Shown here: in pieces, positions 1-45,135 of the stretch
Layout of the letters: the number at the start of each line of letters is the position of its first letter
How positions within the stretch are numbered: the stretch's first letter is position 1
Assembly: GCF_001447785.1 (NCBI RefSeq)
Contig: NW_015175992.1
Location: forward strand, 410,662 to 474,661
Length of the DNA: 64,000 nt
Reading direction: 5' to 3'
From: Gekko japonicus
Lineage: Eukaryota
Notes under the pieces: generated by a model
Database searches by the model: none
Seen by the model: the letters and a program-made list of their open reading frames with translations, nothing else
Told to the model about the DNA's origin: nothing
Program-made: the position numbers and the translations under genes

Positions 1-72
1 ATTGTATAAAGGATGTTTGTGTGCTATTTTATAAAGTTATTTTAATTTGCAATACCTGTGAATTTGCAATAC

Positions 73-321
73 CTGTGAAGTGTGCTCCATCTTTAGCATT
101 CTTGGGCACAAGGCACAGTTCCATATCGTCCAGTTCATTCTGTTGTTTTAATCCAAGCCACTTTTTAATGTCTGGTCCACCCTTTCGAATGCTGCCCAAG
201 GTTGTACTCGGCATTTCCAGAGCAAGAATGATATCTACCGATACATGTGAGGGTGGCTCTCCAATTCGAAGAGTAACTGCTGGGCTTCCAGGTTTTTTCC
301 TCTCCACAGTAACTTTCATTC
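73..321 (-). CDS. CGAS: cGAS coding exon 3 (gene continues beyond left edge)
   Basis: TAG|GA acceptor in correct phase; VTVERKKPGSPAVTL...SVDIILALE (third catalytic D)...WLG...LVPK; donor CAG|GTATTG. Confidence 0.93.
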
Positions 322-812
322 CTATTAGCAGCCATTAAAAAAGTTTTAAATATTTCCATTTCAGGCTACTGCTTCACCAAATTTCAGCAAAATAGATGAA
401 ACCAATACAAAAAGTCGAGCAAGAGGTTAACTTAGAAGTAAAAGTTTACACTTTTGATACAAGGAGTGGCTTGTGGGACATATTCAGCTGGCATTGTTGA
501 GCTGCAAATAAATTAAGTACATTAACAGCTCTGTCATTGCTGCTTTTCCATTGGAGGAGAAATCTACTGTTATATTTTAGCTACAGAATTTTAAGTGAAG
601 TCCATTGGAAGCACTGTGTACAAGCAACTCAGATTTTAAGCATAGATTGTTCATAGGATGATTTGAGAGTAGGCATAACTTTCAGGAGTCCATAGGACAG
701 TTCACATATACAAGCCAGAGACTTATTTTCATTCTTGCATACAGGGTGGTAAAGAAAAACTCCTGTGGAAGACAACCTCTACACATGCTGTAGCAGTATA
801 TGTTTCAGTTCT

Positions 813-2587
813 TTTTTCCCCTTTTTTTTTATAAAACTCTCCTAAAAAGGAGAGAATGTTATTGCTTTTAAAATTTTCAGAAAAAGGGAGGGGTATATAG
901 CGGGATTAAGAATAGTGGTGAGTGATGATTGAATTAGTATATTAATCTTTTGTCAGTAATATTACATTCTGTGGCTTCTTCTGCATTTGACCGATCTTCT
1001 TTCTTCTTTACCTGTCAAAAATAAAGGTGTTAACATATTAGTAATGTCCTTTCGGGTTATTATTAGTATTGTCCTTTAACGCACTTTCTGAAAAGTTTTT
1101 CAGGTGTTGGGGTGTTTTCCTTTTTTATCTCTCAAATTATAGGGTACTCCTCCTACAGCTCCTCCTTCTTCCAGTTTCTTGTCCCCTTCCTCCGAGCCTC
1201 TGTCCTCCTCACTGCTGAATACCTTCCATGTAGCAAGTTCTGCTTCTTCCTCTGAACTGGCGTGCCTCTTCAAAAAGTCTTGGGCTTTGAAAATGGAGTC
1301 TATCTTTTCTCTCTTGTCTTTAAATTTAAAGACAAGTCCTTCTGGAATCAACCATCTGTAGTTAATTTGATGATTTTGCAAGAATGTAGTCAGTCCTTTA
1401 TAAGATTTCCACTTCTTGCGAATTTCAAATGGTACATCTTTTAAAATCCTTATATTCTGTTCTCCAATCTTCAAGGGCTTTGCTGATGTCGCTTTTAAAA
1501 TTTGATCTCTGATGCGTTGTTTGGTAAATTTGACAACCACTTCAGCTGGCAGATTATTTTTCTTTGTAAAATTGGAGTAGGCTCTGTAGGCCAAATCCAT
1601 CTCTTCGCTTAACTTATCCGCTTCACTGCCCATCAGTGGTGCCAAAGCATTTGCCAATATGCTTCTGAGATCTTCCTTCTCAACCTCCTGGATACCTTGA
1701 AATTGGAGAGTTAAATTTGATTTTTCCATCTGTAACATCAGTAACTTGTTTTCTTGTATTTCTTGGTTTTTTTTTCCATTTTATTAATCTTGATTTTTTG
1801 TGTATCTTTCGTTGATACCAGACATTTCTTTGCAATCACCTCCATCTTCTTAGCTGTATCTGTCAATTGTGCCTGTTGATTGCTGAGGACACTTTCTATG
1901 CTAGATAACATTTGGCTGATTTTCTGCATTTGATCCAGCAGGGGGCGAAGCATCTCCTTTTCATGTTGAGTGACAGCCGGCTCTGAAAGGCGGGGGCTAG
2001 GACCGGAAGTTCCCGCCTGCTTCTTCGCCTGCTTCTCCTTCTCCTTCTTTAGCCCCGACATCTTAACTTTTTTGTTTACTTTTTAAAAGTTCATGCCGCG
2101 CGGCTTAGGGATAAATCCCTCTTCGTTGTTTTAAAAGATTTCCCAAAAGGTAACTTTTCTATTCCAAATTTTCACTCCCCCCCCTTCTCGTCATTAACAC
2201 AGTCTCATTCTGTCAGGGGGGGCTATCCACCCTCCTCCCATGCGCTTATCCGGGGGGGGAGAGAACCGCTTAGATTTTCTGATCGTCAACTCACAGTTTG
2301 TAGCCAATTTTGTCTTTTATAATTGCCTTATCGCTCCATCACTCCGAAAAGACTGGTGGTGTTGCTGAGTCCCGTCAGGGCACAACGCGGCGGGGCCTTT
2401 GGGGCATGGGGAAAGCCTCAATTTCCCAACCGTCAGGTCAACAAAGAGGCAGCTCCCTGGTGCGCCCCCTGGTCCGGAGCCTTTACACTAAGGCTCCTAG
2501 GGTCTCCACTTGTGCGGAGTCCCCCCCAACCGTGTGTGGGCATATCGCCTCCGGGAGCGGCATTCGCTTTGCCGTAACCGGAAGTCC
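813..2587 (-). mobile_element. ORF1-only L1-like retroposon (HAL1-like), copy A, full length, in CGAS intron 2
   Basis: 14-bp TSD TATGTTTCAGTTCT (799-812, 2588-2601); 5' end GGACTTCCGGTT; single L1-ORF1-like frame 2061-1100 with one frameshift; A-rich tail; no ORF2. Confidence 0.88.
1100..2061 (-). pseudogene. L1 ORF1p-like protein (coiled coil, RRM, CTD), frameshifted near 1740-1790
   Basis: ORFs 1738-2061 and 1100-1738 join; NLTLQFQG, VVVKF, IRILKDVPFEIR and YRWLIPEGL motifs align with the intact copy at 43758-44720. Confidence 0.85.
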
Positions 2588-4213
2588 TATGTTTCAGTTC
2601 TAATGGTCACAGCCCGCCCAGCCATTTCATTTTAGTAATACATGACTTCTATTTGAGAAGTGGCTTTCAAGGCATATTCCATCGACCATTAGCCAGGAAC
2701 TAATCGAACATTAGCCAGGAACTGGCTGTCACCCCACCCTTGGCTACAGGTGGGGCAAAAGCAGTGTGCATGCATTAGAGGTGGAGTGACCTCCTTCTTG
2801 GTCAGTTCTCTTCTAGCAGCTGCTATTGGAATATTCTCTTAAAACTGTTCTTACCACATCTTACAGAACAAAAAATTATAGCAAGAGTCAACAAGTGTGT
2901 CTAGTGCTATGCATTGTTTAAGACTGTACCTTAAAACCCTCTGAGTAAATAATTTGTTTACAGTCTAACCAAAAAAAAATGTAGTTCTTTTAAACAGTTG
3001 TGTGCTTAATTTGCAATATGATTCTAAACCTGGCCCTACAAGGTGTATTAAAAAGTTTACATAATTGAGCCAAGGACAGAAAGGAAGAAATGAAAAATCC
3101 CAAAAAACATTTTAAATGAGGTTTTATTACACCCTGCACACACACAAAATGAATGTTGGGTGATATCTTACAAGAATATGGTTGACATCGTGGGGTGAGA
3201 GAAAGGCTTGGGAAAGAAAAAGCAGTAATCATGGAGTGGATGGGATTTCCTTCCCTCACAATTTCATGGATCCTCCACTTGTAAAAATATAGACATTACA
3301 TCAACAGAAAATGTCATACCAATTATTATTTAATCTTGAAGGGAAAAGATAGAATATCATGATTATCAAATTCACTTTGATCTTACTGAAACAGGTGGAC
3401 TTTTGTTGTAGAACAATGTGAGATGCTACTTTTAAAAAATCATGACCAGTTAGTGTTCTAAACCAACAAGTGAGCTGTAGCATGCCATAGAAGTCTTTTT
3501 TTAAGGCTAAATGTTCAGAAAACTAAAGAGAAGGAGAGAAATTTGTGTCCAAACTGGCTATTATGCCCACCTTTGCTTTGGTGCAGACTTTTCTGTTGTG
3601 GAAGGACCGTGAATACTAAGCCCCATGTTTGCTTTCAAGCTGGAAAAGCCTCACCTATATATGCAGCCTACTTTCTACTTAATCAGCAGCAATGAAGGTG
3701 GGGAGGGGGGAACACTAATGGTTGCATTAGCTTGAGCAGCAAGGTTTTCTGTGGCTATGTGTTTTCCTTTCTGTGTACAGGAAACCAAGAGAGGCAGTGC
3801 TACTGGTTATTTCTGCATTTGGATGTCTTTATAAGCAACATTTTAACAAGCCAGGAACAAACCATGGTTTAAAATTCTAGCTTAATTTTTATGGACAAAC
3901 AGGAGTTTGTGGTGCAGCCTGCATGAAGGCATTACACTAAACCAATCATGATTTATGAACACATTTTTTTCAATGTCTGACTGCAGCCTAATTCAGATGC
4001 TCACATGCTATCCTGAACACTAGTTTTAAAATTTTTGATTGCCCTTGCCTTGCAGTTTCTGTCCTATGGGAGCAACACAGTTACAAAGACGTTACTGTGC
4101 ACTGGAACATTTGTGATTTTAACTGCGTGCTTAGATTAAAATGAGACTGAAGAATTGACTATGACCAGTATCACTTTTAATCCCCTTTTAATTCTGAATA
4201 AATGAATACTTAC

Positions 4214-4445
4214 CATTTATAGTCTTTACTTCATTTATAATAATGCTCCGCAGTTCTGAAAGGAATTTGGAAGCTGAAAGATATTGCTGATCATCCACGA
4301 AGTCATTTAGTCGCTGTAATCCAGGGTTCCTTTTCAGTTTTACAAAATAATAAACACCCTTGCAGTCACCACCATTATAGGGCTCCAGCTCAACTCTTAC
4401 TCCTGGCACTTTAAGCATAATATCAAATTCATCTGGTTTAGTTAT
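4214..4445 (-). CDS. CGAS: cGAS coding exon 2
   Basis: CAG|ATA acceptor, G|GTAAGT donor; ITKPDEFDIMLK carries the catalytic E/D; YYFVKLKRNP matches the nucleosome arginine-anchor region; 232 nt. Confidence 0.95.
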
Positions 4446-4551
4446 CTGTAAGACAAACATGTTATTTTCTCACCCTTCCAAATTAACTAACAAAAGGATG
4501 AAAAAAATCTACAACAAAATAATTTTTAAAAACTAGACTGCTGACAAACCA

Positions 4552-5249: not shown

Positions 5250-7512
5250 TGTTGTGTAGTGGGTTCGACGCATGAAAGATCACAGAGACGGTGTGCTGCA
5301 GAGCATGGTTTACTGGACACAACACGAACTAACTTCAACAGGGCAGGCGGCCCACTATATACAGAGGCAAAGGGACAACCCTAGGTCCTATTGGTGGGTT
5401 TAAACTTCCTGCCAAAGGTCCTATAGATCCCTGAAGGAAGAGTTCAGGAGCCTAGTCCCTATTCTTGGGACTCCAGCGAGTGCACATATCGCTGCCACCT
5501 GGTGGCGGTCAGCGGACATAACACACACACCCCATAGTTCGAACCCTGCATATGTCACATAGTCCTTCAGGTACGTGGGGGACCGACATTCCCTTGTTGA
5601 CTGCCTTGGGGATGGCACGGGTGACTCATAACTATTTTTCTGTGGTGTCCTCGGGGAAGGTGCTGATATCTCACCCATTTCTGGCAGTGGTTGTGTTTGG
5701 GCCTCTTCTGGTGTCCTCGCAGGCACCGGTGCGCTGACCTCTGGAGCGGCTGCTGGGATGGGGGCTGTTTCCCGTTCCTGGGGAAGCTCCCAGTCTGAAA
5801 CAACATCGGCTGCCCTTTCGGAGACCTGGGCCTCTCTTGCTTCTGGAAGCAGGCGCCACCTCAGCTGGTCCACATGTCTACATAGGACCTGCCCGCAGTC
5901 CGTTGAGACTTCATATGACACTGGTCCCGTGGGGCAGATGATCCTGCCGGTGATCCACTCCAGGCCCTTGCCGTAGTTCTGGACGTAGACGGGATCTTCA
6001 GAGAAGAATCCCCGTGGCGCCTCCCGCTGCTTGGACAGGGTCCGCGACTCTGAAGCCTGGTCCAGGTGTAGGTGGTCTAAAAGGATCGCGGGCCACTGGC
6101 TCATGAGGAGTTCTGCAGGGCTGCGGCCGCTTACCGGGTTGGGGGTAGTCTGTTGTGCCAGGAGGAAGCGGGCCAGGTGGAACTCCCAGTCCCCCTCTGT
6201 CAAGTGGCTGAGGGCTATCTTTGCGGTGCGCACCATGTGTTCCGCTTTGGCCATTCGTTGCGGGGGGGAAGGGAGTCGATCTGATGCTGTGGAGGAACTA
6301 TTGAAATTCCTCTGACGTGAATGCCGTGCCGTTGTCTGAGACAACAGTGTCGGGCAGGCCGTGCGTGGCAAAAATTCGGCGAAGGGCTCGTATGGTCGCC
6401 TTGGAGGAGGTGGTGGAAACCGGGCTAATCTCCAGCCACTTCGAGTAGGAGTCCACAGTCACCAGGAATAACAGTCCATGGAAGGGCCCGGCGAAGTCAA
6501 TATGGAGCCAGGACCAAGGTGTCCATTTGATTCCCATGATTGGGAGGGCGCACTCGGCAGGCTGGGCCAGACTGCCTGGCAGGCCGCACAACGCTTCACC
6601 CAGGCCTCTACTGCGCTGTCGATGCCAGGCCACCAGACGTAGCTGCGGGTGATGGCCTTCATTCTCACGATCCCAGGATGTGCCTCGTGCAGGGCCTGGA
6701 GAACCTGGTGTCGCAAGGCTTGGGGGACCACGACCCTGTCCCCCCACAGCAGGCAGCCCTTGTGCATAGACAGTTCCTCCCTGCGGATCGTGAAGGCAGT
6801 GAATTCTGGCTCCTTCATAGCCACAGGCCACCCCCTTACCACCCAGCCCAGAACCCGGGAGATGATGGGGTCCCAAGCCGAGCTGCAAGCAATGTCCGCT
6901 GCCTGGAGAGGGGTGTCAGGGAGACCTTCAATCACGAGGACATGATGTGCGGGGGCTGGATCATCGTCCACCTCGGGCAAAGGATGGCGGCTGGGGCGTC
7001 GCCGTGTCCCATGACCTTCCCTGGACGATGCTGCAGGGTATAGTTATAGCCTGAGAGGAAAATGGAGCACCGCAAGACCTTTCGGACTTGCGGCATCCGG
7101 CAATCCGCAGCAAAGAGGCAGAGGAGAGGGCGGTGATCGGTGGCGATAGTGAAAGGCCAGCCATAGACAAAATCGTGAAATTTTTTCACTCCGACAACTA
7201 TTGCCAGCCCCTCACGGTTGATCTGGGCGTAGTTTTGTTCGGCCACAGACAGGGCGCGCAAGCAGTATGCCATGGGCACTTCTCTCCCATCCAGGAGGCG
7301 ATGTGCCAGCACTGCACCAATGCCGTATGGAGACGCATCGCACGCCAGGACCACTGGTAACGTTTAATTGAAGTGGGCCAGGACAGAATTTGAAATGAGA
7401 GTTTTAACCCCCCTGAACGCAATGGCCTGGCGCAGGCCCCACGTCCAGGGAGCCTGCTTATCCAACAGTCTGTGCAGGGGTTCAGCTACCACCGCCTTGT
7501 GGGGAAGGAAGG
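5250..7512 (-). mobile_element. Gypsy/Ty3 LTR retrotransposon, 3' part (RNase H, integrase, 3' LTR 5250-5523), decayed and cut by an assembly gap
   Basis: [15 protein letters not shown] (RNase H); HEAHPG...WWPG...CAACQ (integrase HHCC); HIDFAGP...DSYSKW...SDNG (DDE core); LTR bounded by TGTT...AACA; several frameshifts. Confidence 0.88.
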
Positions 7513-17180: not shown

Positions 17181-18061
17181 GTCAGAAACCATCATGCAGT
17201 GGTCATAGAGGAAGCTGCTCAGCAACTTTTCAGGCAAGGGGAAGTTTTTGAACCTGGGTCTTTCCTGTTTACAGATCTTCTTCATGGTCTCTGTGCATTA
17301 CACCTATGGGATTATGCACCTGTGTTGATCTGTGTTGATCTGAATCGGTGATATACAAAGCTCACAACGGGATATACAAAGCTCACCACCTCGCTCCCTC
17401 CTGATACAAGAGTTTACCTAGAGGACCTACCTTTTGATGGCCAAGGGCTCTTCCGTGCTTCCACAGATTCGGCCCTGCAGGAAATGGATAAAAGCATTAA
17501 GGCATCTAGGTCATTAGGAGTCTCTGGTCCCCCTAAGCCTTTTTTACCTCGTTCTTGGTCCTGAAACAGTTTTCAATGTCCATTTAATAAACCACCACAA
17601 GACGAAGGCTATAAACCATGGCAGTCTCCATCTGGAAGCAGATGGAGACTGCGAACATCTTCGGGAGGCCACCGCAGCTCCATGTATAACCTGTACTAAT
17701 AGGTTAAAAGATCTATTATTTTAGCTTCTCAGATTGTGATCAGTACTAGTCTTTACCCTATCCCCACTGCGCATGCCCAAGGAGGCGGGGCCAGTTCTCT
17801 TCTGATCGCCGCGCTGTTAACAGTTTGTTTTCTGCCAGTCGGTGAGAAAGTACTTGTCTCTCTTTGAGGGATTGCTCACTGTGTTCATTAGTTTTCGTGG
17901 TTTTTGTCTTTTGTTTTCCTTCTTCTGCTAAAAAAAAAAGACTTTTTGTTTGAGGGTCACCGCTGCCTCTGGTGGTTCCCCCCCCCCCCCGAGGTAAATT
18001 TTAATTTGCCTCATCTGAGGGCTTCTGTTCTGTTTCCTTTTTTGTGCCATCTTTTTGTTTT

Positions 18062-20250
18062 ATGCCCAAAAAGTGGGGGTGTTTCAGAAGTTGTGGCGGG
18101 TGTGGCAGCAAACTTTGTATTATTTGCCTGGGGGAGGCTCATTGCCCAGAGACTTTCCGTCACTGCGCCAAATTTTCCAATCTGACCCGCAAAAACTGGG
18201 CCACAAGGCTCCCTTGTCTGTCAACAATATGTCTACAGAGCCCCCTTCAGATGTCCACCGGACAGACCCTGCATCGATATCGGAGTCGTCGATGTCGATC
18301 CCTCCTCGTCCTAAGGCGACATTGGATGTGGGTACGTCTTTAAAATATCTGGCACCGACAGGGACTTCCTCAGCCTCAACCCCGGCTAAGAGGAACAAGA
18401 AGGAGAAGCACGACAAGAAGAAGTCTGCTTCGAAAAAGACCACGCATAAGTCTCACAGTATGAGCAGCGTTGGTAAGAAACCGGGCTCTGCTCAACCCCC
18501 TATCCAGCGGGCGGAACTCGAAATCGCCAACCCTCCTGAACCGGAGCTGCCTGTTATACCATTGATAGAGTTACTAGACTCGCCTATACAGCAGCTATCA
18601 GAGGCTTCCATTATTGCAAGACATTGATCTCTCTGTTGGAGGTCGTGATTCCACGCAGATCTCATATGGACTATTCACCATCGGTCTCTTCTTGGGCTAG
18701 TGGTCGATCCTGGCCGGACTCTCGATATTGGTGTCCTCGATCCAGATCTCCTAGGCGTGAAGAGCATCGGTTTCGATCAGAGGGATACCCTGAATACTAC
18801 CATTCCAGACCGAGACTACACCGTTTGCCCAGGCGGGAGTCCAGACCACACTCCCCTACCTATTTTGAGCCGCCCATGCCACCTTTGTGGGACCATCGGC
18901 AGCACATGCCTTACTGGTTTGGTTTGTATCCGATGTCAGCACCCATGCCGTGGGGGACGCCTTGGCCTCATTCAGATTGGGACCGCAGATCGCGACGTTC
19001 TCGTTCTCCTCAACGGAGGTCCAGACCATCTCCAAGCCTCCAGAAGACTGTCTGTGTTCTCCTTCTCCGCTTCATCCTAGGCCTACGTTACCATCACAGA
19101 CTGGTCCAGTGGTCCCCACTCCTACCCGAGTGACAGAGGTTCCATCTGTGTCGACACCGATGTCACCTTCCGGATCTTTGGACTCCGATTCAGACACCGA
19201 CGGTTCGGAGCAGCCTGGATCGCCCGAAGACCCTTCAATTCCAAACCCTGCAGTATCGGACAACCTCCCTATATCCCTGTCTGAAGATATTTCTTCTTAT
19301 GGAGAGTTAATCAAACGCATGGTGAATCTGCTAGGACTTTTGATTGTCCAACCCCAGCCGTCGGTGTCGGATGCCATCTTCGATGTCGTACAACTAGACA
19401 CCTCCACACCGATTGCTCTCCCGATGTCGTCCGTGTTACTCCAGGCAGCTAAGGCTCCATGGGACAAACCGTGTTCTGCTCCAGTGTCCTCTCAGTGCTT
19501 GGATCATATGTACCGGATTCAGGAGATGGAGGCTGAATTTCTCCAGCTCCATCCTAAACCCAACTCTATGGTCATGTCATCCTCCTCAAAGAGCAAACGT
19601 AGCTTGGCTACACCTTCGGAAAAGGAGAGTAAAAAACTAGATTCAATGGGACGCCGTTTTTATTCAGCAGGAGCTCTCGGAATTAAAACTTCAAACTACA
19701 TCGCATGCATGGGCTGTTATGAATTCTCGCTCTGGGCGCGTGTTACCAATCTTTTGTCATCGGTACCCGAGGACAAGCATCAAGAGGCCAGGAAACTGCA
19801 AAAGGATGGTACAAACAAATCATAAACTCCTCCAAACATGCCTTAGATACATTTTCAAAAACAATGTCTTCTGCAGTAGCCCTTTGGAGACATTCCTGGC
19901 TCAGAACCACCTCGCTCCCTGCTGATACGAGAGCTTACATAGAGAACCTACCTTTTGATGGCCAAGGGCTCTTCCATGCTTCCACGGATTTGACCCTGCA
20001 GGAAATGGATAAAAGCATTAAGGTGTCTAGGTCATTAGGAGTCTCTGGTCCCTCTAAGCCTTTTCAACCTCGTTCTTGGTCCCGAAACAGTTTTCGATGT
20101 CCATTTAATAAACCACCACCAGACGGGGGCTATAAACCACGGCAGTATCCGTCTGGAAGCAAACAACACTATCAGCCCAGACAAAGTTACGGTACTGGAC
20201 AACAACAGACCAGACCAAAACAACCTAAATCAAACAAACAGGGCCTTTGA
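18062..20250 (+). pseudogene. DIRS gag-like ORF (Cys/His finger, LAP2alpha-like region), disrupted
   Basis: FRSCGGCG...CIICLGEAH...C finger; SSYGELIKRM...IALPM...WDKP; frameshifts and stops. Confidence 0.7.
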
Positions 20251-20251
20251 C

Positions 20252-22100
20252 TTGGTCCTGCCTACCCTTACGGACCCTACCCGTCTCTACCCTTATTTAC
20301 ATGCCTGGACTGCCATTACTTCGGACCAATGGGTCCGTTCCATCTTGACCACCGGCTATTCCATCGAGTTTATAGAGCTTCCACCCCTTTCTGGGGTAGT
20401 CACCACACCCCTGTCGTCATTCCTACTCAAAGAAGTAACCACACTTTTATCGAAGGGTGCTATAGAACCCGTGCCTCTAAATCACCAGGGCCTCGGGTTT
20501 TATTCCAGATACTTCATGGTACCCAAAAGGGACAGCGGACAGAGGCTGATCTTAGACCTCCGTGGCCTCAACGCCTATATACAATGCCAGAAATTCAAGA
20601 TGACATCCCTGCAGGTCATTCTACCTCTCCTGTCCCAAGGCTGTTGGATGGCCACTCTTGACCTCGAAGATGCCTACTTCCATGTAACCATCCACCCCTC
20701 CCATCGAAAGTATCTTCGATTTGTGATAGGGGGCAGCCACTACCAATACAGGAGTCTACCGTTTGGCCTCAGCACAGCACCGCGGGTCTTCACCAAACCG
20801 ATGGTGGTCGTTGTGGCACATCTCCGCCTCTGTGGCCTGACGGTGTTCCCGTAACTAGACCACTGGCTTCTAGTCGCAGCTTCCAGAGACCTTCTTACAG
20901 AACAAGTGTTGCAGGCCTTGGAGGTCCTTTGAAGCCTTGGTCTCCGGGTCAATTACAAAAAATCGCACCTAGTTTAGTCTCAAAGAGTGCAATTTATAGG
21001 AGCAATACTCGACTCTATACAAGGAAAAGCCTTGTATAGAGTCCTGCCCTAAGACCGAGTCCTCACTCTGGCTACTCTTGCTCAACAGATTTGGCTCCAA
21101 GACAGATCACCTGTGTTCCAAATTCTATGCCTACTGGGCATGATAGCAGCTACAACTGTGGTCCTTCGTTCCACAAGGCTACACATGTGTCCATTCCAGC
21201 TCTGGTTCGTACAACATTTCAAACCATTACAAATGACCCAGTGTCCGTCTCTCCCCATCACAAGAGGCACTCGACTCCCTTCTTTGGTGGACACTAACAG
21301 ACAATCTGACACGAGGTGTCTCTTTTCATCCCCTTACTCCTGGTCTCACTCTTACGACCGACGCTTCGCTGTGGGGCTGGGGTGTCCACCTCAACGACCT
21401 CTCCATTGGGCACAAGTGGGACGCTGTGACCTCCAAGAATCATATCAACTTTTTGGAGCTTCTGACCATCAAGCTGGCTCTTCATTGTTTCCAGCCTCTG
21501 CTGCTGGGGAAATCCATGGCTGTATTGACGGACAATACAACGACACTCAGTTACATCAACAGTCAAGGAGAAACAGTCTCCCGCAGTCTCTGTTGCCTAG
21601 CTCTGGACCTTTGGGCCTGGTGCATTCCTCTGCACATATTTCCCATCGCCTCTCACATTGTGGGCAGTGCCAATGTATATGCAGACCTGCCCAGCAGGGG
21701 TCTCTTTCAGCGTCACAACTGGGAGCTGAACTGGGCCTACCTATGCCCCATGTTCCAGAAGTGGGGTACACCTCACATAGACATGTTTGCCACCCGACAC
21801 AATACAAAATGCAATCTATTTTGCTGCAGGGGAGCACAAGATCCCAAGGCCTTGGGAGATGGGCTCCTCTACCCGTGGGACATGGACTTCCTATATATGT
21901 TTCTCTCTCTGCCACTGCTGCTGCAGACAGTCCAAATACTTCTGAGGGTCCACACAAGGTGCATTTTGATTGCTCCCTGGTGGCCAAGGCAACCTTGGTT
22001 CGCCAGTCTCCTCTCCCTAACGAAATCCTGATACCCTCTTCCACAAGTGCCAGATCTGCTTCTGGCGGAGGGAGGAGCACTTTTGTTCCACGAGGTCCAC
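20252..22100 (+). pseudogene. DIRS reverse transcriptase, RNase H and methyltransferase-like domain, disrupted
   Basis: LDLEDAYFH; LPFGLSTAPRVFTK; YLDD mutated to *LDH; HINFLEL...TDNTT; WGTPHIDMFA...APWWPRQPWF. Confidence 0.88.
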
Positions 22101-22139
22101 AAGCTCAAACTAACGGTGTTTCTTGTGGACACGTACATT

Positions 22140-23500
22140 TTTCAAATAGTATTAAAAACGTATTACTCAATGCCAGGAAGAACTCTACCAGATGCTCTTA
22201 CAAAGGAAAATGGTCTAGTTTCCTGGCCTTTTTACAGCCCTCAGGCATGTCTCCGTCTTCTATCACCCTGGATCAGATTCTGGAATTTTTAGTTTCTCTA
22301 GCAGTGAAAGGCCTCTCGCCAGGGGTCGTTTCGTAGAAAAAGAGCTAGGGGAACTCATTAGCATAACTCATTAGCATATGCCACACCCCCTGACATCAGG
22401 GGCCCGGCGGTGGACCTGCAAGGCCGGCGGGAGTGCGAGTAAGTCCCGCCAAGGCCCTCCCTGGCCCCAGGCAGGCAGGGGTGGGGAGAGGCGGGGAGGA
22501 AGCAACTTACCCTCCCTCTTCTCCTGCCCTCTCCTGGCTGAATGAGGGCCGGAAGCGGGGTGGCTGGAAGCAGGGGGCGGGGCTTCATCGTGTGCCCCGC
22601 TCCCGCACCTCACCCGGGGGAACTGCGATCCTCCGCGATCCCCCCCCCCGAATCGACCTCTGCCTCTCGCATTCCTCAATAAGGGTGTAGTTGTCCGCTA
22701 TTTCCACCTACCATCCAGGCTTCGAGGGCTTCTCTGTTTTCTCTCAGCTGGTCTCAAAGACATTCCTGAAGGGTCTCCTACACTTATATCCACCAATCCG
22801 TGTGCCGGTACCCTTGTGGGAATTGCTGCTAGTGCTGTGCCAGCTGATGGGATGACCCTTTGAGCCAATGGCAACCTGCGAGCTAAAACTTGCCGCATGG
22901 AAAACTGCCTTTCTAGTTGCCTTTACCTTAGCCAGCAGGGTGAGCGAACTCATAGCCTTTCATCATGATTCACCTTTCCTTGTCTTCCTACTGGAAGGTG
23001 TGAAATTACCTGACATCTCTTTCCTTCTGAAAGTGATTTCTGAATTCCACCTGAGCTCGGAGATTTTCCTACCAAGTTTCTTTCCTGACCCAAAAGATGG
23101 ACAACAGCGTCTCCTCCATGTACTAGATGTTAAGAGGGTGCTGCTTTCTTACCTGGACAGGACATGTTCAAGTAGGAGGGACAATCACTTATTTGTTTCC
23201 TACTCCAGTCACTCCACAGGACAGAAGATTTTGGCACAACATCTCTCCAAGTGGATTGTTGGGACTATTAAGCTGTGCTACCTGTTGGCTAAATGCCCGT
23301 TACCTTTGCCTGTGCAAGCACGCTCTACAAGATTCTTAGCTACATCTACGGCCTTTCTGAAGGGTGCTTCCCTGTCGGTGATCTGCAGGGCTGCAACATG
23401 GTCTACTCCGGGCACTTTCATCAAGCACTACGCTGTGGATGTTCGTGACCGGCACAGAGTGGACCTTGGTAATCTCGTCCTTTCGTCGGCAGAGCATTGA
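22140..23500 (+). pseudogene. DIRS tyrosine recombinase, disrupted and interrupted by a MITE
   Basis: ARKNSTRCSYKGKW; ASRVSEL; RSTR...ICRAATWSTPGTFIKHY (catalytic Tyr). Confidence 0.85.
22320..22662. mobile_element. hAT-type MITE (343 bp) inserted in the DIRS recombinase
   Basis: 8-bp TSD CCTCTCGC (22312-22319, 22663-22670); imperfect TIRs CAGGGGTCGTTTCG / CGAATCGACCTCTG. Confidence 0.88.
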
Positions 23501-23678
23501 ATTTGCGACAGCTCCCACCTCCAGGTGAGCCACTGCTTTTCAATCTCCCATAGGTGTTATGGACAGAGACCACGAAGAAGATAAACAGGTTGCTTACCCG
23601 TAAGTGATGATCTTCGAGTGGTCATCTGTGCAATCACATGCCCTTCCTTCCCCACTGCTGTCGCTTCAGTACTTTTCT

Positions 23679-25480
23679 TTTTTTATTATTATTTTTATAA
23701 GACTACAAAATACTACAGAAAATAGGGGAGGGGAAACTACATATACGAGGGGGAAAGTAAAGAAACCAACTACTACCTAAAAACCCAAGAGAGGAGATCT
23801 TCAAAAAGCTTAATTACATTAAGTCATAGCTCATTTAAATAAATATGAATTGAGTCAAATATTTCAAACAGTTTCCCTTTTCTTTTAATTTTTTTAAACT
23901 GTCTAAAGACAATTCCCACCAATTATCACATCGTATCAGTTAATTCAAGGCACAATTCAGAGTCCTTCAGCCTTTATTTTTCTCTTCCTTGTCTCTTCCT
24001 CAGTTTATAAGGACTTTTCGGAGCAGCAGCTCCTTGCTCAGTCAGAGAGTCCTCTCCAGAAGATCCCAACTCCAGCTCTCCACTCGAATTGCTGTCATCT
24101 TCCTTTTCTTCTTCCTCTGATTCCTTCTTCCTCTGATTTTCCCAGCTGAACCCTTAGAAACTCTTTGGCTTTAAAAACAGAGTCAATTCTTTCTTTTTTA
24201 TCCTTCATCTTGAAAGTTACGTCTTCCGGAAATAGCCATTTGTATCCAATCGAGTTTGTCTGAAGATAAGTCACCAGCTCTTTATACTTCTTCCTCCTTT
24301 GTCTTATGTCAAATGGAATATCCTTCAGCATTCTGATCTTATGTTTCCCCATTTCCAGGGGTTCTCCAGAAACTGCTTTCAGGATTGCATCCCTTATTCT
24401 CTTCGAGAATCTTACAACAATGTCCCCAGGCAGATTATTCTTTTTTATATAGCCTGAATATGCTCTGTAGACCACATCCATATCGTTTATTTAATAGCGA
24501 TTCTGCCGTCATTTCCATCACTGGGGCGAGCAGTTCACCCATTACTTCTTTAAGATTCTCTCCCAATTTTTCTGGCACACCCTGGAAGCGAAGGACCATG
24601 TTGGCCTTATCCATTTGAATTTGCAGCCATTTATCTTCCATTGAAGTTTGTTTCAATTCCAGCTTTTGGACTTTCTTCTTTACTTTTTGAGTTGTTGCAG
24701 CCACTTCCTAAACTTTTTCATTCTCTTGCTTCATTAGTTGTATCACATTGTTCATTTGGGTTTGCTGCGCTGTCATTGTTTGAGTTACCACCAACATCTG
24801 CTCTTTGAAAGTATTTAGTTGCTCCAGCAGAGTGCGCATGCATTCAGCTACAGATTTAGCCAACTGAGTGGTCACTTCTGGTTTAGGACTATCAAGTCCT
24901 TTTACTTTCGAAATCTTGTCTTTGTCCCTCGTGCCCGCCATCTTTTCTGTTTGTTTACTCTCAGCAAGTTTTTAAAAGTCTCTGAATATGCGCTTGACCA
25001 CTTTACTTCTCTCTGGTGAGTATATCTAGACAGTTTTCTCCGCGTTACTGCTCGCTCCCCCCCTTCCATTTAACAGTTTATGTGCATGGGAGGCATCCCC
25101 CCGCTCGCTTTTTCCCATTCCGTGGGGTAGGGTGGGGAGCGTCTTTTTCTTTTAAAAATCGTTTCTCAGTTGACTCACGTTGGTCATCCGACCACGCTTC
25201 TTGCATCATTTTTAGCGCTCGATCTCCTGCGCTCGACCCGGTTAGCGTCTCTAGTACCATTCGGCCTCTCGGCACGAAGACCCACCAAAGCAAAGGGGCG
25301 CCTCAATTCTCTGGCATTCCGCCATCGAAGAGGCCACCCCTCAAAGCTCCCTGGCCAGGTCCCCTTCATCGGGTCTCTGGGGGGAGCCTGCTCGTCCCCT
25401 CCTTCAGCCGGAGCGCAGAGACACCCCCGGGAGGTCCGGGAGGTGAGTCCGCAGACACGCCACCATCAACCGGAAGTCTC
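23679..25480 (-). mobile_element. ORF1-only L1-like retroposon (HAL1-like), copy B, full length, nested in DIRS
   Basis: 17-bp TSD CGCTTCAGTACTTTTCT (23662-23678, 25481-25497); 5' end GAGACTTCCGGTT; A-rich tail; no ORF2. Confidence 0.88.
23974..24941 (-). pseudogene. L1 ORF1p-like protein of copy B (one stop, two frameshifts)
   Basis: NMVLRFQGV, YRAYS, IRMLKDIPFDIR and YKWLFPE motifs; a 16-nt duplication near 24105-24137 shifts off the tail ...SPYKLRKRQGREK*. Confidence 0.82.
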
Positions 25481-28265
25481 CGCTTCAGTACTTTTCTCCA
25501 GTTATTGACATGACAGCAGTTAGAAGGAACTGGCAGAATGTCCACGCCCTGCCCCCTTGGGCATGCACAGTGGGGTTCCCACGCGTGCTTGGGAGAGAGG
25601 CACGAAAATCCCATTGTGAGCTTTGTATATCAGTGATTTGGATCAGCGCAGGCGCATAATCCCGTAGGTGTGACTGCACACATGACCACTCGAAGATCAT
25701 CAGTTACAGGTAAGCAACCTGGTTTTTTTGTCCTACAAAATGAGGGCTAGCAGAGATATGCAGAAGAGGCAGGCATGCAGGATGGGGGGGGGTTGCTTGT
25801 AGCAATACATGGGGCATAGATATAGAAATACATATCTCCTTTTCCTAGCATGGAGATGCCTTGAAGGGAAAAATATGATACTCATTGTAAATTTCTGCTC
25901 AATATACAACTAATGAATCATAATCACCTTGCTAAAACTTCATTGAACTGAACATGGCAACTGTACTTAAAATTCATATTTTAACCCAAATTGTAAAACA
26001 GTGAGAGCTAGATGTTCAGGCATCAGAAAGATTCTCTTACCTCATCCTTTCTCTGAAATATGACATGTAACCAAGAGAAATTGCTTATTTTCACTTGGAC
26101 CATATTTAGGGCTGTTAACAGACCCAGTGAAAGAGAGCATATCCCTTAAATAGGAGCTTGCTTGATATGTGGAAATGGGCAGGGAGATAAATGTCATCTG
26201 GTTGATAATATCCATAAAAGGAATTCCCCCCCCCCTCCAGGCTGTTGGCAATTCTAACTGTTAAAGGACTGAGAATGGGCATGTACTCACCTACCTGCTA
26301 TAGATCTGTATTCTGCTTTTCTAGCATAAAGAGCTCTAGGTTCATTTGGGCTATCTGTCTGTCATACATAGGTTTAAAGGACTGGGACATGCAGCAGGTA
26401 TTGGGACGAGTAGGGCTTCCATCCCCCACACCCTCAGTAGTTCTTTTGTAGTTTTAACACCCATATGAGAGACACACAGGTCAATTTCACATTACCTTTC
26501 TAAACTGAATGGCTTCTATTATTATTGGCCCATCATGGAGTAAACTGGTACGTTGATGGCTGTTTCACACTGCATTCCCCTTCCAGTAAGGAGCCGTCTC
26601 TGAAGTGCTGTGGCCATTTCAAACTACCCCGCTTTCTTTCCCCGCCATTTCCCCCCATGCGCATGATCTCCAGGAGAGGAGTTTTGTGGGGTTTTTTAAT
26701 GTTCTATTGGGAATGCTATGATGCTGAAACAGGACGTCAAATCAGCGCAATAGTGCCACCATCGGTATGCCTAGACTCCATTGAGATACATGCAAGTGCT
26801 ACATCTGCCACCTGGAAACAAGTATCTCATTGGATACAGAGTTCAAGCTGGAGATCAGGGCACCAGAGATTGGTGAGACAGCTGCTGCTAACCCTTCCAT
26901 GCCCAGTGTGAGTGAGGGGGGAGGGATGGGTTTCCAGGTGATGCAGAGGCCCACATATTGGAGAGGCTGTTGCCACCTGGAGAGAAGCTGCTCATTGGGC
27001 AGCAGGTTTAGGCGGGAGATCAGGGTATCAGTGACTGGTGAGATAGCTGTTGCTAACGCAGCCTGATGTGCATCTATCCATGCCAAGAGGCGATTGCCTG
27101 GGGAGTGACTGGTAGAAAGCTGGATCAGGTATAAATGGCAGGGAGGCAAACCCCTTCTCTTTGTGGGTTGAAGTTGGTAAATGGTTGGCTTGTTTGATTA
27201 GAGTAGTCTTGTTGATCACCTGCAAGGAGGATGAGTGGGACAAGGGGAGGTAGCCTGGAAGAAGCAGGAGATTAGAGTCCTGCTGCTTTTCAACACTACA
27301 CCAAACTGGCTCTGGATTTCCATTCCACCTTTTTCAGCTTATTGAACAATTAAAGATGTCGACATGATTGGTCACAAAATTTGACTATGAATGTAAAAAT
27401 CAGGTTTTAAAAGAAACATAAGGACCATGCAGTAAGAAGGAAAGCAGTGACACCATTGCTTTGAGCTGCAGCCAGCTCTTGAAGCATTTTGGAATTTTTT
27501 TAGTTTTGGGGGGGAAATAACAAATGGTGACTCAATAAAGGTTTATAAAATCTAGGTGCATCTGACCTATTTCTGCTTGTCACAGTTATCACCTGAGAGG
27601 AGATGGAGAATTACTGGAATCTGAGTTGCAGTGTTACCACCTTAAGTCTGTGATATGGAGGAATTGCGAGCGAGAGAGTGTGGAGAGAGCAATTCCCAGA
27701 AACACCAAATGTCTGGGGGAAAAATCCATAACGGAAGAATAATCAGAATACAATTAGATTAGAGGCCCCTGCACAGTGAGGCTACTGCCACCAAGCCGTC
27801 CTCTTCCTCTGCTGTGGGCGTGCTCCCAGCTCGCTGTTCTCTCTCTCTTTCCCCCGGCTTCCCTGACCCACAGGATTTCCGAACACCCCACCACCCAAAA
27901 TTTCTGTCTACCCCCCTGAACTTGAGAGTGGCTGAAAGGAAGATTGAGTTTGGCTCTTTGCATTTTCACTTCCTGCAGGAGGATGGAGTTTAGAAAAACA
28001 CAGAATGAGCGACCGCACAAACCACTCCCCAAGAATCACACAGAAGCTTCCGTTTCAAAAAAATTCCCCGTCAGGCTCTGGGTCACCCGGCTTCCCTACA
28101 GCGAGCCGCCCACGCGGTAGAGTAGGCTGGCTGGCTGGCTGGGTGGGTAGGGCGAGCGGGGGGATCTCGAGAGTCTTGTTGCCCTCCTCTGCCGTCTCCC
28201 CCCCCCCCCCCCCCTCTTTTTTTTTTTACCTTTCTCTGTAGGATTAAGTCTACCACGCCCATGAG

Positions 28266-41669: not shown

Positions 41670-43476
41670 GTCATAGAATCATATAGTTGGAAGGGACCTC
41701 CAGGGTCATCTAGTCCAACCCCCTGCACAAAAACCTCCCCCTCCACACCCGAAGTGACTGCTGTTCCACGTCCAGTTGATGACAAAAAACCTCCAGGATC
41801 CCTGGCCAAACCAGGCTGGAGAAAAATTGCTTCCTGACCCCAAAGTGGCAATCAGTATTCCCTGGGTGTGAAAGAAAGGGCCTTCCTGCCCTCCCTCTCA
41901 TGATCTGCCTAAATTCACAGAATCCGCATTGCTGTCAGATGATCACCTAGCCTCTCTTTGAAAACCTCCAAAGAAGGAGAGCCCAGCACCTCCCGAGGGA
42001 GCCTGTTCCACTGAGGAACTGCTCTGTCGGGAAGTTCTTCCTAATGTTTAGCCAAAAACTCTTTTAATTCCAACCCATTGGTTCTGGGGCAACAGAAAAC
42101 AACTCTGTACCATCCTCTTTATGACAGCCCTTTAAGTCCTTGAAGATAGTTATCATATCACCTCTCAGTCATCTCCAGGTTAAACATACCCAGCTCCTTC
42201 AACCTTTCCTCATAGGACTTGGTCTCCAGACCCCTCACCATCTTTGTTGCGCTCCTCTGGATACGTTCCAGCTTGTCTATATCCTCCTTAAATTATGGTG
42301 CCCAAAACTGAACACAATACTCTAGGTGAGGTCTAACCAGAGCAAAGTGGTACCATCCGCATGATCTGGACACTATACTTCTGTTGATGCAACCCAAAAT
42401 TGCATTTTCCTTTTTAGCAATCACATCGCACTGCTGACTCATGTTCAGTGTATGATCTACTAAGACCCTTAGATCCTTTTCACACATACTATTGCCAAGC
42501 CTCCCCCAACCTATAATTATGTATTTGATTTTTCCTACCGAAATGCAGAACTTTACATTTATCCCCATTGAAAGTCATTAAATTTCTTTTAGCCCAGTTT
42601 TCCAGCCTGTCAAGATGATCCTGTATCCTGTATCCTACCCCTCCCAATTTAGTATCATCTGCAAATTTAATAAGCATTCCCTCTATCCCTTCATCCAAAT
42701 CATTGATAAAGATGTTGAACAAAATAGGTCCCAGGACAGATCCCTGAGGCACTTGTCACTCCTCTCCAAGAGGATGAGGAACCATTCACAAGCACTCTTT
42801 GGGTGCGATCTGTCAACCCGTTACAGATCCACCTAACAGTCATAGGATCCAAACCACATTTTTCCAATTTGTCAACAAGAATATTATGTGGAACCTTATC
42901 AAAAGCCTTATTGAGATCAAGATAAACTATGTCTATAGCATTCCCCTGATCCTGCAAGGTAGTAACTTTCTCAAAAAGTGAGATACGGTTAGTCTGACAT
43001 GACTTGTTCTTGAGAAACCCATGCTGGCTCTTAGTAATTACAGCCATCCTTTCTAAATGCTCAAGGTCTGTTTGATGATTTGTTCTAAAACTTTCCCAGG
43101 TAACGACATCAAGCTGACGGGTCAGTAGTTACCCAGATCCTCCTTTTTCTCCTTCTCCAGTCTTCTGGCACCTCACCTGTTCTCCAAGAATTCTCAAAAA
43201 TAATGGACAGAGGCTTCCACTTCGGCGAAAGGGCAGGATAAAAGCCAAATAAATAAATAAATCCACAAGTCCGTTTAGTACCCTTGGATGCAGCTCATCT
43301 GTCCCCAAGGACTTAGTTACATTTAAAGAAACTAGTGTTTATGTACTACCCCATGCCGATCCTAGGCTGCAACTCTCTTCCCTCATCATGTGTTCTGTTT
43401 TTGCCATATTGAACACTGTTTCCCTTGCAAGAGAAGACTGAGGAAAAATAGGAATTGAGCAGTTCTGCGCTCTCTC
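41670..43476 (-). mobile_element. CR1 LINE (ORF2 RT, internally deleted) in MTO1 intron 9, interrupted by HAL1-like copy C
   Basis: QHGFLKNKSCQTN; DIVYLDLNKAFDKVPH; [17 protein letters not shown]; KFADDTKL; TCTATGA tail. Confidence 0.9.
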
Positions 43477-45135
43477 TTTTTTTAAAAAATTGTTTTATTC
43501 CCTCTCCTAAAAAGGAGAGATATTTCGCTTAAAATTCAGAAAAATAGGGAAGGTATATAGAGGGATAAAGAACAGAGTTGAGTGGTGTTAGTGTATTAGT
43601 ATATTATTCCTTTAGTATTAAAAATTAAGGTCAATAATTTCTTCTGCAGTCAGGCGCTCTTCTTTTCTTCTGTATCTGTTAACAAAAGCAATTAATATGT
43701 TAGTACTGTCCTTCTGAGATTAATTTCCCTTTCAAAGTGTAGTCCAAAAGAAGAAACTTAAACTTTGGCATCTTTTCCTCTTTTTTCTCTCAGGTTATAT
43801 TTCGAACCCGTCGCTCCTTTAGCTTCCTCGTCTTTCACCTCTCCCTCCGAGCTGCTGTCTTCCCCGCTTAATCCCGACATCCACTTGGCCAGTTCTGCCT
43901 TTTCTTCTTTGCTGGTGTGCCTTTTCAAAAAATCTTGAGCCTTGAATATAGAGTCTATCTTTTCTCTTTTATCCTTAAACTTAAAAACCAGTCCTTCGGG
44001 CACCAACAATTTATAACTCGTTTGATGATTTTGTAAGAACATGGTCAATCCTTTATATTCCTTTCTTTTCATTCTGATTTCAAATGGAACATCTTTCAAA
44101 ATCCTGATCGGTTGGTCTCCAATTTTCAGGGGCGTTGCTGATGCCACCTTTAAAATCTGGTCCCTGAGACGTTGCTTTGTGAATTTCACAACCACTTCTG
44201 CTGGCAACTTATTTTTCTTCGTAAAATTGGAATAGGCCCTATAAGCCAAATCCAATTCTTCTTTTATTTTTTCCGCTTCGTTGCCAGTCAGTGGTGCTAA
44301 AGCCGCTGGCAAAATGTCTCTTAGGTCCTCTCCATTCTCTTCTTTCAGTCCCTGAAATCGGAGAGTTAAATTTGCTTTCTCCATTTGAAGCATTAGCAAT
44401 TTATTGTCTTGTTTTTCTTGATGTTTTTCCACTTTGATGACCTTCTTCTTAACTTTCTGTACTTCTTCTGCTGATGCCAGGCATTTCTTTGCAATATCGT
44501 CTACCTTTTCGGCTGTCTCTGTCATCTTCTTCTGTTGAAGACCATAGGCACTTTCCATAGAATCTAGTTTTAGGTTGATTTTTTGCAGTTCCTCCAGCAG
44601 ATGGCGTGCAAGATCACCTTCTTGTTGATTGACAGCAGTTCCAGCAGGGGAAGGGCTTGGACAGGAAGTCCCTCCCATCTTCTTCATCTGCTTCTCTAGT
44701 AGTTTTCTCGGCCCCACCATATTGCAACTTTGTTTACACTTTAAAAGTTCTTGCCGTAACTCTCAGGGATGGCTCCCTCCTCTCCGCGTTCTTCTCCCTC
44801 TCAGAAGGTAATGCGTTTTTTCAATTTTTTGCTTCGCCCCTCCCTTGCCTTTAAAAAGTCTCTTATTCATATGGGGGGGAATCCTCCCTCCCTTCCGCTT
44901 CTTGGGGGGGTGAAGCCCTTTTATGCCGCCGCTTTTATTTTGAACGCCAACTTACGGTTCATCGCTTGTCTCGTTGATGTGACTTAACTTTAGCGCTCCA
45001 CCACCCCGCTGTTCCGGTGGCGTTGCTAGTCCCCATAAGGGGCAAGTCGCAGCCGGGGCCGTTTGGGGTAGAGGGAGAGCCTCAATTCCCGACCTTCTGG
45101 TCGGCAAGAGGCTTCTCCCCAAAGCACCCCCTTTC
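43477..45135 (-). mobile_element. ORF1-only L1-like retroposon (HAL1-like), copy C, about 115 nt 5'-truncated
   Basis: 5' and 3' UTRs homologous to copy A; AATAAA plus A tail; no ORF2; no TSD visible. Confidence 0.85.
43758..44720 (-). CDS. Intact 320-aa L1 ORF1p-like protein (coiled coil, RRM, CTD, acidic/basic tail)
   Basis: Open from ATG 44720 to stop; heptad-rich N-half; NLTLRFQGL, LAYRAYS, VVVKF, IRILKDVPFEIRMKR, YKLLVPEGLVFK. Confidence 0.85.
   Translation of the reverse strand: MVGPRKLLEKQMKKMGGTSCPSPSPAGTAVNQQEGDLARHLLEELQKINLKLDSMESAYGLQQKKMTETAEKVDDIAKKCLASAEEVQKVKKKVIKVEKHQEKQDNKLLMLQMEKANLTLRFQGLKEENGEDLRDILPAALAPLTGNEAEKIKEELDLAYRAYSNFTKKNKLPAEVVVKFTKQRLRDQILKVASATPLKIGDQPIRILKDVPFEIRMKRKEYKGLTMFLQNHQTSYKLLVPEGLVFKFKDKREKIDSIFKAQDFLKRHTSKEEKAELAKWMSGLSGEDSSSEGEVKDEEAKGATGSKYNLREKRGKDAKV

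Follow-up and report, generated by a model that had tools for sequence, protein, structure and literature searches.

The closest described systems belong to two groups: proteins that bind the H2A-H2B acidic patch of the nucleosome by an arginine anchor, and L1 retrotransposons together with their half-length derivatives. R540 of PFV Gag enters the pocket formed by E61, D90 and E92 of H2A, while Y537 and L539 make hydrophobic contacts (PMC9040877). The Y537Q substitution lowers nucleosome binding and R540Q nearly removes it (PMC12125541). Chromosome painting persists in cells with R540K, as does chromosome binding with Y537A (PMC6042332), and thus constancy of Arg over Lys is not a cleanly discriminating feature. 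In the host protein RNF169 the residues used are Y697, L699 and R700, the last being the anchor (PMC5426901). CMV IE1 uses M483, T485 and R486 (PMC9040877, section 7), and the anchor of KSHV LANA consists of M6, L8 and R9.

As to the L1 elements, PMC12047440 reports that condensates of the human L1 RNP bind mitotic chromosomes via DNA binding by ORF1p, and that this is needed for nuclear entry; a chromosome-binding step therefore exists in L1 biology. Mammalian HAL1 (half-L1) is described as a non-autonomous L1 derivative encoding only ORF1p (PMC5753468). In lizard L1 clade 1 there is either no spacer between ORF1 and ORF2 or an overlap of the two, and the ORF1p of lizards is possibly not trimeric; the ORF1p tail goes unmentioned in the accessible text on these clades (PMC5381506). 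The class of motif and the HAL1 layout have each been described before; their combination did not turn up in a literature search that covered mostly journals outside subscription. Nor did the search find a link between L1 ORF1p and the acidic patch, only an unrelated co-mention.

The window (the whole stretch of 64,000 nucleotides of Gekko japonicus DNA that was analysed) contains three ORF1-only, HAL1-like derivatives of L1, all on the minus strand. Copy C (43475..45132, family AC) is apparently 5'-truncated, its likeness to sister loci stopping at 45132. It has an uninterrupted ORF1 of 320 amino acids (43758..44720) comprising a coiled coil, RRM, CTD and tail, followed by a 3'UTR of about 250 nt and an A-tail, with no ORF2; a search for a target-site duplication of this copy found none. 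Copy A (813..2587, alignment A1), a full-length element of the same family, is flanked by a 14-bp target-site duplication (799-812 and 2588-2601), and its ORF1 (1100-2061) has one frameshift near 1770. Copy B (23679..25480, family B) is full-length and decayed, with a 17-bp target-site duplication (23662-23678 and 25481-25497) and an ORF1 (about 24941 to 23974) that is broken by several frameshifts and a stop. At the end of each ORF1-only family a small hairpin adjoins the poly(A) signal, before the signal in AC, where it is common to the family (43502..43519 in copy C and 837-854 in copy A, minus strand), and after it in B, D and E; it is possibly a recognition signal for a borrowed ORF2p.

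The initial annotation had reported a four-residue word near the C-terminus of each ORF1, and all three are present on the minus strand: Y-N-L-R in copy C (43788..43799), Y-N-L-R in copy A (1130..1141) and Y-K-L-R in copy B (23998..24009). The Y, L and R of copy C fall in invariant columns of the tail alignment (A5) and entered the codon test described below. The word of copy B, in frame in sister loci, is out of frame here because of a 16-nt tandem duplication ahead of it (about 24107..24138, minus strand), which had also been annotated and which comparison with the sister copy L062 confirms as an insertion. In copy C the word lies within residues 284-320 (43761..43871, minus strand), a tail made of an acidic and Ser-containing linker, GA-T-G, YNLR and a basic end, which AlphaFold2 predicts to be disordered (pLDDT <50). 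Across all six frames the window contains 25 instances of YxLR, which gives a chance level of about 1% per 50-aa tail; as the three copies are related to each other, the family was taken as the real test of the motif.

The ORF of copy C matches human L1 ORF1p in sequence (E 5e-6, PDB chain) and, as an AlphaFold2 model, in fold (Foldseek E 2e-11). Its layout is that of L1 ORF1p, with a coiled coil followed by an RRM of non-canonical type, then a CTD and, in the model, by the disordered tail bearing the motif; Pfam gave nothing above cut-off for the ORF1s of the window, PF02994 reaching only E 0.08. Past the last aligned position there are 71 residues in copy C versus 41 in the solved human chain, and to our knowledge human ORF1p has neither an acidic linker nor the tail motif. 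A search of the gecko's own genome scored 125 matches among 29,464 candidates. In loci of families AC, B and D, ORF1 is followed in the same way by a 3'UTR of about 250-300 nt, a small inverted repeat and an A-tail, and ORF2 is missing. A relaxed endonuclease pattern picked out 2/100 AC and B loci; L028 ends in an A-tail like the others. Marks of retroposition are present in the target-site duplications of copies A and B and in the dispersal of copies genome-wide, and the ORF1 of these elements is under purifying selection (omega 0.11-0.17 on internal branches). Autonomous L1s with ORF2 occur in the same genome, and the ORF1-only elements are probably mobilised in trans by an L1 ORF2p. The elements share with mammalian HAL1 the coding of ORF1p alone, here together with poly(A), target-site duplications and a high copy number. 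The host differs in being a squamate, and a separate origin is likely, because the ORF1 groups with the autonomous L1 ORF1s of this genome. Family D includes a very young subfamily (loci L297-L302 and about 25 equal-scoring matches) whose ORF1 tails are identical, whose 3'UTRs are nearly so and whose frame is open, which suggests recent activity. One family B locus (L110, G000:C7826) has an in-frame duplication of the motif region and hence two YKLR words.

The sample comprised six ORF1-only lineages (AC, B, D, E, F and G), and in a tree of 51 rows including autonomous L1 ORF1s they form one clade (support 100/100) amid the ORF1s of autonomous elements. YxLR recurs in four of them, with N, K, D, R, Q or H as x. 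It is in frame in 47/50 loci of family AC, in 32/50 of family B (40/50 counting any frame), in 27/31 of family D, 6 of these being identical young copies, and in 22/30 of family E, 2 with a stop at x. Families which are only about 50% identical in RRM-CTD still keep it. The initial annotation had the copies converging on one motif; the motif is indeed common to all three, and its cause is common descent rather than convergence. YxLR is absent from the 7 tails of lineage F that were read and from all 30 loci of lineage G, where N-[LV]-K-Y stands instead in 22/30. F and G are sisters (96/98), with E as their weak sister (82/95), and the simplest reading is a single loss of YxLR; F and G both amplified despite it. 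Since a few G tails read LKVKL, BET ET-binding was considered for this family and rejected, the K-phi-K-phi consensus (taken from PMC11939847) being found in 0/30 further copies.

For the codon test, 100 AC and B loci yielded 65 with an open tail of 40-75 residues, and 6 of these, frameshifted inside the tail, were dropped, which left 59 copies. On internal branches the Y, L and R codons together record 17 synonymous changes and no non-synonymous one. Of the other tail codons just 6/48 are free of internal amino-acid change, against 64/162 (about 40%) of RRM-CTD codons, which puts the motif level with the domain core in constraint and above the codons around it. Y and L are each present in 59/59 copies and the anchor R in 56/59; position +1 after the anchor is E, D, K or G, and at +2 and +3 K and R replace each other freely. 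A count of 0 non-synonymous changes at Y, L and R is also seen in families D (24 copies) and E (21), on just 3 and 2 synonymous ones. The acidic linker, previously called poorly conserved, turned out to be under purifying selection (omega 0.16 in AC and 0.27 in B), and so are the residues ahead of Y.

The autonomous L1s of this gecko resemble clade 1 of the lizard L1s in PMC5381506, and in some of them the end of ORF1 overlaps or abuts ORF2. Their ORF1 is laid out alike, with a CTD, acidic linker, basic stretch and a short word, here [QH]-[IVM]-[LQ]-T-R-[FY]. [IVML]xTR is found in 47/56 unique tails, whose median identity is 34% versus 65% in the CTD, and the Lys control of phi-x-T-R is depleted (2 versus 9.7 expected). 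Many of these words then carry Y-[KR]-x-R, aligned with YxLR, and this may be the source of YxLR. Further autonomous lineages also show phi-x-T-R; in one L1 clade with short tails the word is missing. Among autonomous copies, L032 and L033 (G000:C4011) have the 5'/ORF1 segment tandemly repeated, and L049 has an in-frame internal duplication of ORF1.

Residue positions in the published binders place the ORF1-only word in the register of Gag and RNF169, and the autonomous word in that of IE1. Like known arginine anchors, the tail words have a hydrophobic residue at -3, Leu or Thr at -1 and a conserved Arg, in a segment predicted to be accessible and disordered, and the patch residues of the host H2A are intact. 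The tail shares with PFV Gag a Y-x-L-R register in the basic C-terminal region of a retroelement's RNA-packaging structural protein. Gag binding has been demonstrated by crystallography and mutants, and it reaches H3 via Y549; the tail is non-homologous and has no counterpart of Y544 and Y549. Gag presumably also has N at position 538 and a preceding GG. The LR motif of RNF169 and RNF168 is likewise Y-x-L-R with R as the anchor and is disordered even when bound; unlike the tail, RNF169 is a host protein which needs an adjacent ubiquitin-binding helix and the upstream R689, and has Ser at +1. The chromatin-tethering domain of IE1 (M483, V484, T485, R486, S487) has phi-x-T-R near the C-terminus, as the autonomous L1s do. 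Ser at +1, found in IE1, LANA and RNF169 and perhaps not a universal requirement, is absent from ORF1 tails, that position being F or Y in autonomous L1s, and the herpesvirus proteins are unrelated. Human L1 ORF1p has the same coiled coil-RRM-CTD fold and an RNP that binds mitotic chromosomes for nuclear entry, but it does so by DNA binding that requires its N-terminus. On this comparison, the likeness of YxLR to an acidic-patch anchor, proposed in the initial annotation, holds, and it gains from the shared register, the purifying selection on Y, L and R and the IE1-like variant in autonomous L1s.

We consider it somewhat more likely than not that YxLR is an arginine anchor for the H2A-H2B acidic patch which loads the RNP of the element on mitotic chromosomes. 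In this scenario, Arg would insert in the E61/D90/E92 pocket of H2A, and Tyr and Leu would occupy the hydrophobic pocket next to it. ORF1p coating its own RNA would display many tails and thus gain avidity, and the tails could dock on nucleosomes once the nuclear envelope breaks down. Clinging to mitotic chromosomes, the RNP would be carried into the daughter nucleus, and ORF1-only elements might then borrow the ORF2p of an autonomous L1. The strongest argument for it is that two apparent anchor registers, YxLR and phi-x-TR, occupy the same region of related proteins. On the other hand, a four-residue word holds little information, and with about 40% of RRM-CTD codons equally unchanged, the constraint on it is at the domain-core level only. 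Lineages F and G amplified without YxLR, and the short-tailed L1 clade is wordless. The missing Ser at +1 and the missing counterparts of Gag Y544 and Y549 also count against chromosome tethering, as does the possibility that lizard ORF1p is not trimeric (PMC5381506).

Distant relatives bear on the same question. A tail-free profile of RRM-CTD (23 sequences), used in an HMM search over representatives, found 775 proteins, whereas word-index protein searches had found 1 and 2 relatives only. Of the best 150 of the 775, 122 reach the end of the CTD and 81, taken whatever their ORF2 status, have tails of 40-160 residues; 4 among 20 relatives looked up are named proteins, from gecko (2), snake and fence lizard. 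Strict YxLR is found in 2 of these 81 tails, for an expectation of 0.3. The counts are 20 tails for [MYIVLF]x[LT]R, against 7.7 expected, and 18 for Rx[LT]R, against 3.2, with flat Lys controls; z-scores of the broader patterns are inflated, as these were partly chosen after the tails had been inspected. An N-terminal control region is flat for [MYIVLF]x[LT]R and Rx[LT]R, whereas strict [MY]x[LT]R exceeds shuffles there too (9/61 versus 3.0, partly via the initiator Met), which weakens the case for a tether, and so does the lack of any phi/R-x-[TL]-R in 45 of the 81 tails from the best 150 of 775. The anchor-like word is scattered over several clades of the distant-relative tree. The conservation in the wider family for which the initial annotation had called is thus seen inside the ORF1-only clade and does not extend, for strict YxLR, to distant relatives. 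On the tether reading, the tail word is a general accessory trait of a large squamate L1 group, losable, and not an invention of the parasite. Several relatives without a tail word open with M-x-T-R (P0047, P0054, P0074, P0082, P0088, P0092, P0098). The idea that this N-terminal word complements the tail word was rejected, as 12 proteins have the N-terminal word only, 27 the tail word only, 2 both and 48 neither, which is not significant (Fisher p = 0.13).

The initial annotation also saw in the tether a possible reason for a parasite to keep ORF1. This does not stand, because autonomous L1s share an equivalent word and family G has kept its ORF1, with a CTD under selection (omega 0.14, 21 copies), without YxLR. 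A wider form of the tether reading, in which squamate L1s and half-L1s use a histone-binding arginine anchor on ORF1p, independent of Gag, IE1 and LANA and occurring in Gag-like and IE1-like forms, to hitch-hike on mitotic chromosomes and perhaps to bias insertion, is one that we offer tentatively and with less confidence than the loading step itself. If true, a protein of a non-LTR retrotransposon would be tethered to the nucleosome directly, doing the job which human L1 does by DNA binding, and would add non-LTR retrotransposons to the elements converging on the nucleosome acidic patch. It would touch on the long-standing questions of the route by which the L1 particle reaches the genome and of the need for ORF1p, and a discrete, mutable tether of four residues, which nature offers as YxLR, as phi-x-TR and in wordless sisters, would make this step testable with peptides.

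The tail holds a second word, [GE]A[VTM]GG, found in 11 of the 81 distant tails from the best 150 of 775 against 0.03 expected (P0002, P0019, P0032, P0059 and others); in copy A it lies at 1145-1162 on the minus strand, and in families B, E, F and G its form is GAAAP. Docking of the tail on another host protein, on ORF2p or on ORF1p itself, with Y, L and R as part of a longer module that includes GA-x-x-P or GA[VT]GG and acidic Ser sites, is an unlikely explanation, but the one that survives best beside chromosome tethering. It would account for the excess of the second word, for the persistence of GAAAP in F and G after the loss of YxLR, for the purifying selection on the linker and on the residues ahead of Y, and for the different word, N-L-K-Y, conserved in family G (22/30). 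However, no known partner fits, the literature search on GAVGG having given nothing relevant among the titles listed, and the occurrence of the YxLR and phi-x-TR registers in the same region is left unexplained.

Slightly less likely still is a role of the tail as a basic signal for nuclear or nucleolar localisation or as a nucleic-acid-binding patch, perhaps phospho-regulated, of which YxLR is only the conserved start. All families, including F and G, do end in a K/R cluster, which is preceded by Ser-rich acidic stretches and, in family B, by an S-P-Y-K site; we take S-P-Y-K and the Ser-rich stretches to resemble kinase sites. Constraint within the tail is weakest in the K/R cluster (omega 0.27 and 0.64), where K and R are swapped freely, whereas the uncharged Y and L, which a localisation signal does not need, are invariant. 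Binding of DNA by human ORF1p through basic N-terminal residues (PMC12047440) offers this explanation a parallel. Finally, that YxLR was passively inherited or fixed by an RNA-level constraint, as descent of all YxLR families from one ancestor and the ORF1/ORF2 junction of some autonomous L1s might suggest, is very improbable and largely refuted by the codon test, since synonymous changes are frequent at the motif codons (four Leu and three Arg codons in family AC, all four Thr codons in the autonomous phi-x-T-R), ORF1-only elements have no overlapping frame, and the word persists in families half-diverged in RRM-CTD.

Copy A sits in an intron, between two exons of a cGAS-type (Mab-21) gene (4209..4451 and, on the other side, the next exon at 32..334, both minus) and on the same strand as this gene, which is adjoined by GIDA (MTO1-type) and EF-Tu-family exons. 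The gene names around copy A (cGAS, MTO1) are presumptive and rest on synteny. The initial annotation had placed copy A in cGAS and called this a probable coincidence; the intron position is confirmed and nothing points beyond coincidence. A link to cGAS was rejected because copy A, whose ORF1 carries a frameshift, is just one among a great number of dispersed copies. Two more matches, G000:C3617 and G000:C17578, score the same as the Mab-21 exon of the window, and they represent either a duplicated cGAS-type exon or redundant assembly. The window further contains a decayed pol fragment of an LTR retrotransposon with an integrase core (5421-7363, minus strand), whose C-terminal part has an R-x-S-T-R...P-x-Y-L-x-D-Y stretch that in our view resembles the CENP-C nucleosome-binding motif. 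Just ahead of copy B, at about 18000-23500 on the plus strand, lies a decayed element with an RT frame and further long frames, which we take to be DIRS-like.
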